Positions 9,006 to 14,451 are shown, numbered from the stretch's first letter. The stretch: DNA of 40,880 nucleotides from Gemmatimonadota bacterium (GCA_003697105.1 RFFQ01000034.1:1-40880); one strand, 5' to 3'. Numbers and translations: made by a program. The notes: a model not told the origin generated them from the sequence alone.

Positions 9006-9506
9006 TCAACGGTGGAGGCGCCGGTAGCCGGTGTAACCGATCAGTAACAACCCGGCAACCAGTATAAAAAAGAGATGAAGCGGAAAAAACGAGAAAAAGA
9101 CGATCCGAATCCGATTGAGAATCCAGGAGAGCACTAAAAACACACCCGCCAGCATTGCCAGCCCTTGCAAAGTCCGGTATGCCGGGATGGACTCCAAAGG
9201 CAATCGGCTTCGGGAAAGCCAGATCGAGGCAAGCATATAATAGGGAGGTGCTGCGAGGAGTAACAAATCCGCCTGATGAACAATCTTTACCCAACCGCCG
9301 GTATTCAGGGCATACGCCACATACCCGACCCAAAGGATCAGGCAGACCAGTGCCCCCGCCATGTTGGTGCTCAGTAAAAACGCCTCTTCCCGCCGCCCGG
9401 GGATAACCATACACAACCCCCATGCCACCCACGGCGCGGCATATAGGATCACCATCAGGGGAATTTTGTAGTTGAGAATGAAGATAAAAATATCAGCAAT
9501 CGTCAC
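9006..9506 (-). CDS. Hypothetical integral membrane protein (about 5 TM)
   Basis: 166 aa, several hydrophobic segments, GTG start 42 nt after the ECF gene. Confidence 0.75.
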   Translation of the reverse strand: MTIADIFIFILNYKIPLMVILYAAPWVAWGLCMVIPGRREEAFLLSTNMAGALVCLILWVGYVAYALNTGGWVKIVHQADLLLLAAPPYYMLASIWLSRSRLPLESIPAYRTLQGLAMLAGVFLVLSWILNRIRIVFFSFFPLHLFFILVAGLLLIGYTGYRRLHR

Positions 9507-9547: not shown

Positions 9548-10750
9548 TTATTTTAAACCGGAGACACAAAAAATACCGGGAATCCGGTGTTTCTGCATCA
9601 ACGGGCGCAAATACCGCCGCACACTCCGCACCTGAATGGAACGAAAATGAACCTCATGAAACCAACGCTCGACGGTTTGTGGGTCAAATCCAAGCCAAAC
9701 ATTGCGCAGGGATTCCCACACGCCAGCTTGATCATGCCGCAGAAAATCGCACACCAACAATTGTCCTTGGGGGCGCAAAACGCGCCGACATTCGCGCAAT
9801 ACTGCTAGAGGGTCTACCGCATGGTGCAAAGCTAAATTGCAAACCAAGGCATCAACCGATTGGTCTGGAAGCGGCAGATGTTCAAAATCACCTTGCCGGA
9901 AGGTGACATTCTGCATCCCGCGTTGCCTAACTTTTTGGCGTGCCCGTTCCAGCATCTTTTCATTCTGGTCAAGTCCGATCACCTGCGCCACATAGCCCGC
10001 CAAAGCCAACGCACAATGTCCCGTGCCGGTCCCGATATCCAGTACAGTCATTTGCTGGTGAAGCGGCATCTGCTCGATCAGCCAATCGATCCACTCTTCT
10101 GCCACCAATTGGTCTCGCACATCATCCCATTGGGCGTAATTTTCGCTAAAATAACGTTGGACGTGCGCTTTCAATGCCTGCTTGAGGTCATGTTGCGGGT
10201 TGAGCGGGTCAATCCGGCGGAGCAAATCGGCGTATCCGGTGGATTGCGTGAGGGTCCCCACCCATTCGGGGGCAACCGCGAGCAAATACTCCCGCCGGAA
10301 GTTCTCCCGCGCCCGGTTGAGTAAGGAGGTTACGGCACTCTGGGAAAGCCCTAAGACCTCCGCAATGCGAGCATACGATAAGCCGTGCACATCTCGCAAT
10401 TCGATCACCCGACGATGGCGTTCCGGCAATATCTCCATAATGGAACGAATCAACAGGCGTGTTTCCACATCGCCCGGCGGGGACGACCGGTGCAGCCGCT
10501 CCGGGGACTCTGCCACCGCTTCCAGCCGGATTTTACGGAACTTGAGATAATTCAACGACATGTTTTTTGCCACACGATACAACCACGCCCGCCAGTTGAT
10601 CGCCATCGTATTCCCCATCCGCCGTTCAAATTGTACCGCTTTGACAAACACATCTTGACAGATGTCCCGGGCGGTCTCACCGTCCCCGATCATCTGTTTG
10701 ATGAAGCCGTAAATTTCACCTTCATACGGCATAAAATCTGGCGCCATCAT
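9548..10750 (-). CDS. ECF sigma factor fused to a C-terminal class I SAM-dependent methyltransferase-like (SahR-type) domain
   Basis: Sigma2: ARDICQDVFVKA...WLYRVAKN. Sigma4: LPERHRRVIELRDVHGLSYARIAEVLGLSQSAVTSLLNRAR. Methyltransferase: VLDIGTGTG, GLD, GDFEHLPL, LHH..DP, RVLRPQG. Confidence 0.9.
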   Translation of the reverse strand: MMAPDFMPYEGEIYGFIKQMIGDGETARDICQDVFVKAVQFERRMGNTMAINWRAWLYRVAKNMSLNYLKFRKIRLEAVAESPERLHRSSPPGDVETRLLIRSIMEILPERHRRVIELRDVHGLSYARIAEVLGLSQSAVTSLLNRARENFRREYLLAVAPEWVGTLTQSTGYADLLRRIDPLNPQHDLKQALKAHVQRYFSENYAQWDDVRDQLVAEEWIDWLIEQMPLHQQMTVLDIGTGTGHCALALAGYVAQVIGLDQNEKMLERARQKVRQRGMQNVTFRQGDFEHLPLPDQSVDALVCNLALHHAVDPLAVLRECRRVLRPQGQLLVCDFLRHDQAGVWESLRNVWLGFDPQTVERWFHEVHFRSIQVRSVRRYLRPLMQKHRIPGIFCVSGLK

Positions 10751-10777: not shown

Positions 10778-13111
10778 TTAAGAATCCTCCAACGGTGTTC
10801 TCTCGTAAGCACTCACCTTCAAAAAGCGACGGAATCGCTCGCTGAGAATCAGTGCCAGCGTATCCTCAAATTGGTCGGAATGTTCCCAAGCGTCCAGTTG
10901 CGTTTTGGCATATTCATACCCAGTTTGTACCAGTTGGTCAATGGCAGTGAACTCCAACAGACCAAAATCATCAATAGGCGGCTTCAGATAAATATCGGCT
11001 TCCATTGCCGCGACCTGACCCTGATTGATGCTCCGGATGACCTGTGTACGCATGATAATATGCACCAGATTTGGTACTTGCAACGCTTTTTGGAACGGAT
11101 TTAACCAATGCCATAAGACCGTCCACGGCGATGGCAAATCTGGGGTTTCACACCGGATCATCATCTCCTCATCTGGAATGACATTGACCGAGATCACCAG
11201 CCCTCGCGCCATTTTGCGTATAACACCTGCCGGAAGATTATCCAACACCCCGCCATCAATATAGACCTGATGATTCTTAATCACCGGTGGGACCACCCCC
11301 GGTAAAGCCGTCGTGGCCCGGATGGCCTCCCAAACCGGACCCGTGCGATGAATAATGGTATCACTATTCGAGAGATTACACGAGATGGCAAAACAGTTGA
11401 TCCACAGATCTTCCAGCCGGCGCTCTCCAAAGATGTTTTGCATCAATTTATCGATTTTCCGCTTGGATAACAATGCCATGACCGGCAAGGTTAAATCCTT
11501 TATCACCGAATAATGACCCAAGATGGCTTTATTTTGGCGGTACAATTCGTCATGATCCCACCCCATCGCATATTGGGCGGCAATATAAGCCCCGGCACTG
11601 GTTCCCCCAATCACATCAATGGGGATACCGGCTTCCTGCAGTGCCCGGATGACACCGATATGCGCTAATCCCCGCGCACCCCCGCCCCCCAACACTAAAC
11701 CGATTGCCCGCCCGCTAATGATTCGGGCGAGACGATCAATATCCTCCTCACTTAATCCGCGTAAATGATGGTGGCTGGCTACCGTCCGCTCTGCCAACCA
11801 CAAACGTGTCCCCGAAGGCGACACGGTATCCGGTGGATGGATCAAGACCAGTGCTTTTTGCGCCAGAGTGATCCGGTTGAAATGGCTTAAAAATGCCATT
11901 TCAATTGCCCCCGGGGAGGGGTCTGTGTGCGGCTCGGCGAGGATAAGCACCAAATCGGCTTGTTGTAACGCTCGCTCCGTCCAAGCCGTAATGCCGGGAT
12001 CCGCTTCGTACACCAAAAAATCATATTTGATTTCCTGATCATCAAGCCAAGTGATCAGCCGAATGTTATAGGGGTCTTTCACCGCCAATCCTGCCGCGCC
12101 ACTCCAGCCAATCATCTGATCCAGAGATTCATTATTCAAATACAACACGGAACTATAGGTTCGCAGTGATTGCACCAACCGCCGGCAAAATTCCCCAACG
12201 GGTGCGTCTTTGCGGTGCCCGATCACCGCAATATTTTTGGGAATGGAACCGGCTAACCGGCGATGCCGGCGCATATCATTGCGCAACCGGTCAATTAGGG
12301 TTTCCGTGATGGCAAACATCATCTGCGGGTACTGGCGGGTAATGCGTTCAAATACAGGCTTGGAAATCCGTGCCAAAACCGAATCCCGCACCGACCGGAC
12401 GGTTGCGGTCCGTCCCTCATGGGTGAACATGGAAACCTCGCCGATCAATTCACCTCGGGAAAGCTCACCGACGATCTCAAAATCCCCATGTTGCGTTTCG
12501 ACGACCACTTGCAAGCGCCCATTGACCACAATGTACATGCTGTCGCCAATATCACCTTGCCGGAAGAGGGTCTGCCCGTCCCCTAACTGCACCCATTCCA
12601 CCAGATCGCCAATATCACGCCATGCCACCTCGGTGTGAATCCCGAATAATTCCGGTAACAGTGCCAATAATTGATTCCGCATGAGCCGCCGCCGGACAAT
12701 ATTCGTGAGATGGGTTACGGTCTGCGGGGATTCCTGAATCAGGTGTTCAAATGTTGATTTTTCCAGACGCACGAGCGTTGTTTCTTGTGTGGCAATGACG
12801 GTTGCCGTGCGCTGCCCGCCCGTCAGGATTTGCATTTCGCCCACCGGTTGCCCCGCCTCTAAATCCGCAACAAAGGCTTCCGTACCATCTGGTTTTTCCA
12901 TAGTCACCCGTAAATTGCCATGAACCACCACATAGAGCGCATCACTGGGGTCATTTTGCCGGAACAGCACTTCACCGGCGCCTAACCGGATATACTGAAC
13001 GCGCTCAACCAGATGCTGCAGTACCGGCGTCAATAAATCCGTAAACAGTTCACAGATTTGGAGGTCTTGCTGAATTTGCTCAGCAGGAGGAAGAGGAGTG
13101 AGGTATTCCAT
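10778..13111 (-). CDS. Two cyclic-nucleotide-binding domains plus patatin-like phospholipase (NTE family)
   Basis: Two cNMP domains (LFRQND..GEMQIL..RTATV and LFRQGD..GEVSM..RTATV). Patatin motifs GGGGARG, GTSAG and DGG. Start ATG 13111 with AGGAG RBS. Confidence 0.92.
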   Translation of the reverse strand: MEYLTPLPPAEQIQQDLQICELFTDLLTPVLQHLVERVQYIRLGAGEVLFRQNDPSDALYVVVHGNLRVTMEKPDGTEAFVADLEAGQPVGEMQILTGGQRTATVIATQETTLVRLEKSTFEHLIQESPQTVTHLTNIVRRRLMRNQLLALLPELFGIHTEVAWRDIGDLVEWVQLGDGQTLFRQGDIGDSMYIVVNGRLQVVVETQHGDFEIVGELSRGELIGEVSMFTHEGRTATVRSVRDSVLARISKPVFERITRQYPQMMFAITETLIDRLRNDMRRHRRLAGSIPKNIAVIGHRKDAPVGEFCRRLVQSLRTYSSVLYLNNESLDQMIGWSGAAGLAVKDPYNIRLITWLDDQEIKYDFLVYEADPGITAWTERALQQADLVLILAEPHTDPSPGAIEMAFLSHFNRITLAQKALVLIHPPDTVSPSGTRLWLAERTVASHHHLRGLSEEDIDRLARIISGRAIGLVLGGGGARGLAHIGVIRALQEAGIPIDVIGGTSAGAYIAAQYAMGWDHDELYRQNKAILGHYSVIKDLTLPVMALLSKRKIDKLMQNIFGERRLEDLWINCFAISCNLSNSDTIIHRTGPVWEAIRATTALPGVVPPVIKNHQVYIDGGVLDNLPAGVIRKMARGLVISVNVIPDEEMMIRCETPDLPSPWTVLWHWLNPFQKALQVPNLVHIIMRTQVIRSINQGQVAAMEADIYLKPPIDDFGLLEFTAIDQLVQTGYEYAKTQLDAWEHSDQFEDTLALILSERFRRFLKVSAYERTPLEDS

Positions 13112-13232
13112 AGTGCTCCTTTGAAAAGTATGCGATTGAAGATACAGTCGAATAGCGATGCCAACTCGTGATAGTGCCGCCGGTGTATCACCGGACAGCA
13201 CTCATTTCGGGACATACACTATCCGGTCATAT

Positions 13233-14216
13233 TTAAGGACGTAAAGCCGGTAGAAAATCGAGGATAGTATCGATCAGTTGGGCGTTATGCTCCGGGGAAA
13301 GAATATCGCCTGCCAATACATGGTTGGAGGGGTCACCGGCTTCCGGGATTTCCACCACCGTTTTCACGGGAGATCCCCACCGCTGGATGTAGTGGAGGGT
13401 CTTTTCGGGATTGACTACCTGATCGTTCGGGGAATAAAACAGTAATAACGGCGTTTTAATTGATTCCAGTGGAAGCTTGCGCACGTACTCCACCAGACCC
13501 ATCATCGGCAGAAGGGCAAGGGTGGGATAGCTGGTGGTCCAGTACCTTTCTTGCAAATCGTTCGCCGCATCCCACCGGTAGGTCTCCCCATTGAGGAGTG
13601 GGACAAACCGGTTTGCCCAGGGGAACAAAAGCACTTCCGAGAGCGGGTCCTTAGGACCGTAATTGGGCGAGATGAGCACCACCGCCAGGACGTCTGCCGC
13701 TGGGGGTTGCGTTGCCAGCCACGTTGCCAGCGTACCGCCGGTGGATGTCCCAATGAGCAGAACACGCTCCCCAATTCGCCGCCCGATCTCCAGTGCCTCG
13801 TCAGCATCGGTTAACCATGCCTGCACCGTCCCCGCCAACATTGCCGCACTCCCCCGCCCATGACCGGTTAAGCGGGTATAAAATAGATTCGCGCCCAGTA
13901 CCTGCGCCAACGAATCACACACCGGCGCAATCTCCTGCCGCGTGGCAGAAAAGCCATGCAGATAAACAATGGAAACCGGTGTTTGACGCTGACTCGAATC
14001 CGCCCAGATGATGGTCTTCTCTGTGCCGGGAATGATGTCCGGGAACACTGCTTCGGATCGCGCTAAATATGCCTCCAAATCATCCAAATCATCCGGTAGG
14101 TGCCGCGGCTGAAAGGTATCATCTATTGCCACACGCGGACCCAGCATAAAAGCCACCCCCCCCAGCAGGAACAGAATCAACAGCAGGAGTAACATTCCAA
14201 TTTTCATTCTCAACAT
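13233..14216 (-). CDS. Alpha/beta hydrolase (esterase/lysophospholipase-like) with N-terminal anchor
   Basis: YLHGF oxyanion motif, GTSTGG nucleophile elbow, DQVV and HVL. ATG 14216 with a GGAGG RBS. Confidence 0.88.
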   Translation of the reverse strand: MLRMKIGMLLLLLILFLLGGVAFMLGPRVAIDDTFQPRHLPDDLDDLEAYLARSEAVFPDIIPGTEKTIIWADSSQRQTPVSIVYLHGFSATRQEIAPVCDSLAQVLGANLFYTRLTGHGRGSAAMLAGTVQAWLTDADEALEIGRRIGERVLLIGTSTGGTLATWLATQPPAADVLAVVLISPNYGPKDPLSEVLLFPWANRFVPLLNGETYRWDAANDLQERYWTTSYPTLALLPMMGLVEYVRKLPLESIKTPLLLFYSPNDQVVNPEKTLHYIQRWGSPVKTVVEIPEAGDPSNHVLAGDILSPEHNAQLIDTILDFLPALRP

Positions 14217-14217
14217 C

Positions 14218-14451
14218 TCATTCCCCCTCCTTAGGGGCAATGCCGGCTACAAACCGGTCAAACTCGGGGAAATCCCACTGATCTAATATGCCCTTTACCC
14301 TATACAGGTATTTAAAAAAGACCATAAAACGCATTAAAACCAACACAAAACTACCAAATGCAATAAACTGTTTATGATCACGATCTAAATCTAAATAAGT
14401 TGGGTAGGCTTTGAGGATCGCCCGCAAATTGTCCGCCCATTGCGCCTCCAC
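14218..14451 (-). CDS. Possible small hypothetical protein (start uncertain)
   Basis: The frame is open from 14547, but that TTG lies in a promoter -35, so GTG 14451 is more plausible. The stop abuts the hydrolase start. No family recognised. Confidence 0.3.
   Translation of the reverse strand: MEAQWADNLRAILKAYPTYLDLDRDHKQFIAFGSFVLVLMRFMVFFKYLYRVKGILDQWDFPEFDRFVAGIAPKEGE

Follow-up and report, generated by a model that had tools for sequence, protein, structure and literature searches.

A SahR-like methyltransferase-fold extension on an ECF sigma factor: a candidate sensor of S-adenosylhomocysteine or S-adenosylmethionine linked to ahcY

The stretch of DNA analysed here, hereafter the window, comprises 40,880 nucleotides from a Gemmatimonadota bacterium (GCA_003697105.1, RFFQ01000034.1:1-40880). 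Its gene at 9548..10750 encodes an extracytoplasmic function (ECF) sigma factor that continues into a C-terminal domain of the class I methyltransferase fold, similar to that of the regulator SahR. Judged from sequence and gene context, the protein is probably a one-component ECF sigma factor gated by S-adenosylhomocysteine (SAH) or S-adenosylmethionine (SAM) and driving ahcY, the gene for SAH hydrolase. The link of the family to ahcY comes from gene order at 20 of 20 informative loci, and that of the source gene from one element, a motif ahead of ahcY in its own genome.

An earlier reading of the DNA, the original prediction, had described an uninterrupted open reading frame (ORF) of 400 aa with sigma2, sigma4, a linker and a full class I methyltransferase fold, and Pfam, the translation and an AlphaFold2 model agree on this layout. 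The frame begins with ATG and has no internal stop; it lies on the minus strand, which had been left unstated. Its parts, with predicted local distance difference test scores abbreviated as pLDDT, are as follows.

9548..10750, minus strand: whole gene, ECF sigma factor plus SahR-like methyltransferase-fold domain; 400 aa plus stop codon
10541..10729, minus strand: sigma region 2, residues 8-70; PF04542 Sigma70_r2, 37.2 bits
10295..10456, minus strand: sigma region 4.2 helix-turn-helix, residues 99-152; PF08281, 55.6 bits, and PF04545, 44.3 bits
10169..10294, minus strand: linker, residues 153-194, with the conserved block DLLxxIDPxxPxxDL; pLDDT of the block 87-95
9551..10168, minus strand: SahR-like class I methyltransferase-fold domain, residues 195-400, from Pfam methyltransferase families and the fold model

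The cut-offs for the two sigma regions are 24 bits for Sigma70_r2 (PF04542) and 25.7 bits for Sigma70_r4_2 (PF08281), the match to the latter spanning residues 99-149; within region 2, DxxQDVF and WLyxVA(R/K)N are signatures of the whole family. The NCBIfam model for sigma70-ECF, TIGR02937, scored 78.8 bits against a cut-off of 42.9. The layout is that of an ECF factor, with no region 1.1, region 2 starting at residue 8 and about 28 residues (71-98) between regions 2 and 4, and no Sigma70_r3 was present among the matches listed (25 of 28 for Pfam). Named NCBIfam sigma models all stayed below threshold (sigma_PG0214, 97.7 versus 130; Sig70_bacteroi1, 82 versus 126.4; SigZ, 74 versus 168.65). 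The protein resembles other ECF factors with regulatory extensions in its ECF core, its fused extension of more than 200 residues, its one-component logic and the lack of a conserved anti-sigma gene nearby. It differs from ECF41, ECF42 and ECF238, which have a SnoaL-like, TPR or Cys-rich extension, in that the extension is a methyltransferase fold.

It had been stated originally that no characterised ECF factor with a methyltransferase extension was known, and no mention of one was found in the main text of the ECF classification, of the paper on ECF evolution or of the review. The word stem "methyl" is absent from the main texts of the 2021 classification and the 2020 evolution paper, and the 2022 review uses "methyltransferase" once only, for a gene neighbouring ECF122. 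No such ECF factor was met in the literature searched, to which it should be added that the supplementary group descriptions of PMC7826278 might mention one. A stand-alone ECF factor in Poribacteria (locus L015) has the N-terminal signature in common and carries no extension.

Class I methyltransferase families of Pfam cover residues 231-337 (Methyltransf_11, residues 237-332, 102.7 bits; Methyltransf_31, 107.3 bits), and among the Pfam matches listed the extension hit methyltransferase families exclusively. All motif strings quoted in the original prediction were recovered in the translation, namely YFSENYAQWDDVR at 200-212, DIGTGTG at 238-244, LHH at 308-310, RVLRPQGQLLVCDFLRH at 323-339 and WLGF at 352-355; a trivial slip concerned the spacing written as DP...E, which is DP, five residues and E. 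The features of class I are present, i.e. a Rossmann-like fold, motif I (DIGTGTG) and the acidic D261 after beta-2, and the predicted SAM/SAH-binding motifs DIGTGTG, D261 and LHH are intact. Elements specific to this family of domains are YF..WD..R, D...RH and WLGF. The AlphaFold2 model, calculated from a 36-row alignment, reached a mean pLDDT of 91.3 and a predicted template modelling score of 0.75, displayed the beta-alpha-beta pattern of the class I fold and was disordered in residues 75-89 only, the link between sigma2 and sigma4. Foldseek with this model ranked class I methyltransferases first (1xxl YcgJ, E 6e-16). Neither sequence nor fold searches found a solved structure of SahR or of a sigma-methyltransferase protein. 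Predicted docking of the sigma part (1-160) on residues 186-400 gave a median score of 0.17 against a mark of 0.32 and was not used as evidence.

Across 36 aligned representatives R146 in sigma4 and the cofactor-motif residues D238, G240, D261 and H310 are invariant; nearly invariant are A27, Q32, W56 and A61 in sigma2 and A139, L143, L144, A147 and R148 in sigma4. Such a pattern would fit a protein selected both for promoter reading and for ligand binding.

A word-indexed search returned two full-length relatives only, with 40% and 36% identity. Among the best 150 matches listed from a HMMER scan of 1.84 billion representatives, with a profile built from three proteins, there were at least 36 full-length representatives (370-440 aa), i.e. 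those aligned above, so that the originally proposed architecture has full-length counterparts. Named sources of these homologues are metagenome-assembled genomes of Tectomicrobia, Calditrichota and Latescibacterota. The fusion was found in 23 of 86 Calditrichota genomes (GTDB species set) and in none of 40 sampled relatives of the source genome, of which just two belong to the same class. Family proteins are currently labelled "sigma-70 family RNA polymerase sigma factor" or "methyltransferase domain-containing protein", and an identical protein is recorded from two contigs. Since the source is a draft genome of 199 contigs, one might suspect an assembly, frameshift or gene-calling error that joined separate sigma and methyltransferase genes. 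The open frame is unbroken, however, and the linker itself is conserved, with D175, L177, I180, D181, P182, P185, D188 and L189 invariant in P0001, P0003 and P0004; furthermore, full-length homologues of 20-40% identity come from independent assemblies in several phyla, some of them chromosome-scale. On these grounds an artefact has next to no probability and is regarded as excluded. A metagenome scan for the source sub-clade yielded two loci, L054 and L055; the first bears a full-length fusion on a 1981-nt contig, and the second was rejected, being an ordinary ECF factor with a zinc-finger anti-sigma gene.

The original prediction had likened the C-terminal domain to that of SahR, and this was borne out by BLASTP against the ArsR-methyltransferase protein P0120, whose relatives sit before ahcY (33% identity over residues 103-398, E 5e-41). 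Identity to ArsR-methyltransferase proteins is 33-39%, and the stretches QWD..R, LALHH and WLGF are common to the window protein and P0120. Beyond generic cofactor motifs, the two kinds of protein have in common YF..WD..R before motif I and, after beta-5, D...H followed by WLGF. By sequence the domain is homologous to that of ArsR-methyltransferase regulators of the SahR type, the comparators being ArsR-methyltransferase relatives and not the experimentally studied SahR. In four unrelated genomes (G036, G032, G024 and G029) the best genomic matches to the domain were ArsR-methyltransferase genes upstream of ahcY on the same strand. They stand directly before it in three of the four; in G029 the two genes are about 760 nt apart and ahcY was matched only in part. 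This order is the published sahR-ahcY arrangement: SahR, an ArsR-family regulator of Desulfovibrio and other Proteobacteria, is described as SAH-responsive with a core regulon of sahR, ahcY, metH, metF and metK (PMC4239095), and as often encoded with AHCY (bioRxiv 10.1101/2022.10.17.512643).

The likeness to SahR comprises the homologous C-terminal domain with its YF..WD..R, LHH, D...H and WLGF elements, the gene order of regulator and then ahcY, and overlapping targets, always ahcY and sometimes metH. The difference lies in the DNA-reading part, which is an ArsR winged helix in SahR and an ECF sigma2-sigma4 core in the window protein; HTH_5 and HTH_20 found no match in the latter, whereas the SahR-like comparators carry PF01022. 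SahR is a dimeric repressor, while the fusion, having a sigma core in place of the winged helix, would act as an initiation factor, that is, an activator working as a monomer within the holoenzyme. The SahR site is described as a 20-bp palindrome (PMC4239095), unlike the fusion-associated motif, which is non-palindromic and consists of two boxes with a 16-nt spacer. The protein is SahR-like in its proposed manner of working, yet it is no SahR, because the ArsR domain is absent.

In a FastTree phylogeny of 138 domain sequences the sigma-fused copies formed two groups, the second with 17 representatives (P0136-P0177), apart from the ArsR clade and from a clade of double methyltransferases; the backbone between domain groups was poorly supported. 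With IQ-TREE on 70 rows, from which P0140 and P0174 were left out as truncated or long-branched and in which other groups were subsampled, one clade of 34 sigma-fused rows was not rejected (p-AU 0.82), and a single origin of the fusion is possible. The sigma-fused domains are not nested within the ArsR clade in either tree. The exchange of an ArsR module for a sigma factor, as first proposed, is possible, and the trees do not show a recent swap from a particular ArsR lineage. No ArsR-type SahR was found in the source genome, where the single pair of ArsR and methyltransferase genes is an ars operon. At C34:456-3029 of the source genome (G000) there is an ars-type cluster with genes for an ArsR-like helix-turn-helix protein, for an ArsM-like methyltransferase rich in Cys and for a permease; it is separate from the SahR-like system.

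A large family of proteins about 480 aa long (P0005-P0110, e.g. P0007) combines an N-terminal SahR-like domain with a C-terminal ArsM-like one. Between their N-terminal domain and residues 198-369 of the window protein the identity is 43%, and the family-specific motifs recur in it; the class amounts to 114 of 271 fetched and classified proteins, annotated at source as arsenite methyltransferase or UbiE. They differ from the window protein in having a second methyltransferase domain as partner and no DNA-binding or sigma module, and they may be sensor-enzyme fusions.

The occurrence of this domain type beside an ArsM-like methyltransferase also suits another explanation, namely that the C-terminal domain uses SAM to methylate a small molecule, a protein such as RNA polymerase or the sigma factor itself, with no ligand gating. 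Every class I cofactor motif is intact and conserved, which makes an active enzyme conceivable, and the nearest solved structures, AtmM, RebM and ArsM, are active enzymes. Linkage to ahcY would then pair a SAM-consuming enzyme with the removal of its inhibitory product, SAH. Against catalysis, the named homologues that carry these family-specific elements are transcription regulators of the SahR type encoded before ahcY, and the invariant residues are cofactor-binding ones, with no extra conserved candidate for a catalytic residue. An enzyme would, moreover, leave the attached sigma core and its conserved promoter-like motif without reason, and we regard this explanation as unlikely.

One line of evidence for the gated sigma factor is the gene order in Calditrichota. 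Twenty of the 23 fusion loci have ahcY directly downstream on the same strand, and the remaining three (L031, L040 and L042) run into a contig end, so that all informative loci agree. The downstream gene was identified as ahcY with TIGR00936 at more than 600 bits (cut-off 497.6), and the gap between fusion and ahcY is 30-45 bp in the first three loci. Upstream of the fusion the genes differ among these three; ahcY is thus the sole conserved neighbour seen, and no anti-sigma candidate is conserved.

Other gene orders were noted in the same phylum. At C2:525986-550088 of G046 a stretch of some 25 kb contains, all on one strand, ahcY, the sigma fusion, metH and a second metK paralogue, and on contig C332 of G068 metH is paired with a metK paralogue. 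In two fusion-less Calditrichota (loci L056 of G085 and L069 of G084) a desaturase-like and an arylformamidase-like gene directly precede ahcY, and the arylformamidase-like member of the pair was identified ahead of fusion and ahcY in L011, so that the fusion gene looks like an insertion or a deletion there.

Another line of evidence is a two-box motif, CGAAAG-N16-TGTATA. Of 22 Calditrichota loci for which upstream sequence exists, 21 have it just before the fusion gene, with one site reading CAAAAG. The 22nd locus, L038, is uninformative, since its contig ends 20 nt upstream of the gene, and L049 stands outside the count. The Calditrichota sites, that of L037 among them, have one of two types of spacer, AT-rich or AAATTGAACGTTCAGG-like, which differ by 2 nt in the distance from TGTATA to ATG; the distance between the boxes is constantly 16 nt, and the TGTATA box is in register with CGAAAG rather than with ATG. 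Searched as an exact pattern in five genomes (24.4 Mb), the motif gave five matches, versus one for the reversed control: four at the fusion gene and the fifth 98 nt upstream of an ORF matching metH (690 bits over the 467 residues present). A further exact match, in contig C208 of G049, falls within a large gene of the opposite strand that resembles those for outer-membrane receptors, and was taken as chance. With one mismatch allowed, 23 genomes gave no more matches than the reversed control.

A weight matrix was built from the 20 distinct fusion-gene sites alone. Upstream of metH it scored 13.7 and 17.5 bits in two of 18 fusion-bearing genomes and 8.3 in a third; the maximum in 20 fusion-less genomes was 2.8 bits. 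In the source genome this Calditrichota-derived matrix located CGAAAG-N16-TGTTTT 65 nt upstream of the ahcY start (11.5 bits); the site is on the sense strand, and a normal Shine-Dalgarno sequence follows it. The site ranks 18 of 8,348,422 genome positions, and the chance expectation for it is 0.0007 in the 303-nt ahcY region, or about 0.003 when corrected for the five regions tested. Upstream of ahcY in genomes lacking the sigma gene the matrix scored -8.0 and -2.7 bits (two genomes of the same class) and 1.0 bits or less (18 Calditrichota). The absence of the motif from ahcY in these 20 relatives indicates that it travels with the sigma gene. A motif search upstream of methyl-cycle genes, as outlined in the original prediction, was positive in the source genome for ahcY and negative for metK, metH and the fusion gene itself.

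A 15.5-bit match to the matrix was also met in the source genome at C179:16574 (+), 81 nt upstream of a 411-aa ORF, and may be due to chance. The N-terminus of this ORF is, we presume, CoaBC-like and belongs to the pantothenate/CoA pathway. The published account of SahR includes panC in some of its regulons (PMC4239095).

The reading as a one-component sensor of the methyl cycle, already advanced in the original prediction, gains support from homologues in several phyla, the ahcY linkage and the two-box motif; we infer from sequence that ligand binding and gating occur, that SAH rather than SAM is the inducer and that the motif is the sigma factor's own promoter. The C-terminal domain would bind SAH in the conserved cofactor pocket, possibly in competition with SAM, and binding would alter the hold of domain and linker on sigma2 and sigma4. 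Upon build-up of SAH the sigma factor would join core RNA polymerase and initiate at CGAAAG-N16-TGTATA promoters, with ahcY as the main target. Activation by SAH would be expected by analogy with the way in which SahR and the SAH riboswitch work, and ahcY is described as the most conserved target (PMC4239095). In Calditrichota, co-transcription of the sigma gene with ahcY would create positive autoregulation, damped by removal of the ligand, and in the source genome the sigma factor would act on a remote ahcY promoter located on another contig.

Several observations weigh against this reading. In the source genome ahcY is not adjacent to the fusion, being on contig C53, with metK on C99, metH on C153 and a homocysteine methyltransferase-MTHFR (methylenetetrahydrofolate reductase) fusion gene on C185; on the contig of L054 the gene after the fusion is not ahcY, its place being taken by an unrelated ORF of 155 aa. 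No link to the methyl cycle was found for the patatin and hydrolase genes beside the source gene, and this setting does not suit the reading. The motif is missing in the source genome upstream of the fusion gene (best score -15.0 bits) and at metK (-16.2), metH (-7.9) and the homocysteine methyltransferase-MTHFR gene (-3.7). The site ahead of ahcY was spotted by eye before it was scored, which somewhat weakens the test, and 17 other positions of the genome, most of them chance-like, score as high or higher. The metH link is confined to two of the 18 fusion-bearing genomes, and 18 of 20 metK upstream regions have no motif; the other two gave marginal matches of 10.8 and 11.6 bits, 343 nt upstream (G079 and G080). 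It should be added that at Calditrichota fusion genes TGTATA overlaps the called start codon or ends 0-11 nt before it, and no alternative in-frame start follows downstream of the called one. If TGTATA is the -10 box there, transcription would start within the first codons; at these genes one must suppose either leaderless mRNAs of unusual geometry or a function of the motif other than that of a promoter.

The position of TGTATA at the start codon would be better matched by an operator or a site acting at the level of translation. This geometry, together with the missing motif before the source fusion gene, brings in a further explanation, in which the extension is a structural or partner-binding module for sigma activity, without SAH or SAM sensing, and the motif is the operator of another regulator or an RNA-level element. 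TPR extensions of ECF42 have been proposed as needed for sigma activity. Against it stand the restriction of the motif to sigma-bearing genomes and its form, two boxes of 6 nt that are always 16 nt apart and make no palindrome; the remote sites, which lie 65-151 nt upstream of metH or of the source ahcY, have ordinary promoter geometry on the sense strand. Rfam, including the SAH riboswitch, had no match at E 0.1 or better in the regions searched upstream of ahcY and of the fusion, and no other conserved neighbour gene was seen that could encode such a regulator. Non-orthologous displacement of the regulator within Calditrichota found no support, as the regions upstream of ahcY in the 18 fusion-less genomes contained no sigma fusion, ArsR-methyltransferase gene or Rfam riboswitch. 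A structural or partner-binding extension without sensing appears rather improbable to us.

The gated sigma factor would have the same role as that expected of the SAH riboswitch, i.e. induction of SAH hydrolase when SAH rises, the riboswitch being an RNA element. To our knowledge, the signal has not been established for most ECF sigma factors that carry a fused extension; for this family sequence and context point to a likely ligand (SAH or SAM) and to a target (ahcY), and the long-standing problem of the gating of an ECF core by a C-terminal extension can be put to a direct test with one promoter and an inexpensive ligand. If true, this would be a third mechanism of SAH-responsive control of the methyl cycle, beside SahR and the SAH riboswitch, and the SahR sensor domain would be a portable module. 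Tentatively, it is quite conceivable that SAH homeostasis is exerted here at the protein level, by a sigma factor whose access to promoters a methyl-cycle metabolite switches directly from within a retired methyltransferase pocket; it would be the first ECF factor for which a small-molecule ligand inside the cell is defined and whose regulon is a single operon (sigma-ahcY), and the sensor module would independently have acquired three outputs, an ArsR helix-turn-helix, an ECF core and an ArsM-like enzyme. A compact, metabolite-switched pair of sigma factor and promoter might also serve in synthetic circuits.

At the source locus, the fusion gene is preceded at a distance of 27 bp by 10778..13201 (minus strand), which encodes 807 aa with two domains binding cyclic nucleotide monophosphates, together with a P-loop-like domain of the NTE family and a phospholipase domain of the patatin type. 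The gene of an alpha/beta hydrolase, 13233..14240 (minus strand), ends 31 bp before the patatin gene, and the spacing suggests that hydrolase, patatin and sigma genes form one transcription unit. Scans for sigma-70-type promoters and for terminators around the window gene gave nothing above shuffled expectation. Downstream of the fusion, after 41 bp, lies a multi-pass membrane ORF of 166 aa (9006..9506, minus strand), which has no Pfam or NCBIfam family, falls into "hypothetical protein" clusters only in the Atlas and is absent from the Calditrichota fusion loci. The original prediction had found no recognisable anti-sigma gene next to the fusion, and this stands; an anti-sigma role of the membrane ORF is possible. 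At the remote ahcY locus of the source genome (L026), a partial 5S rRNA gene (RF00001, 64.3 bits) occupies C53:1-97, about 130 nt past the 3' end of ahcY.

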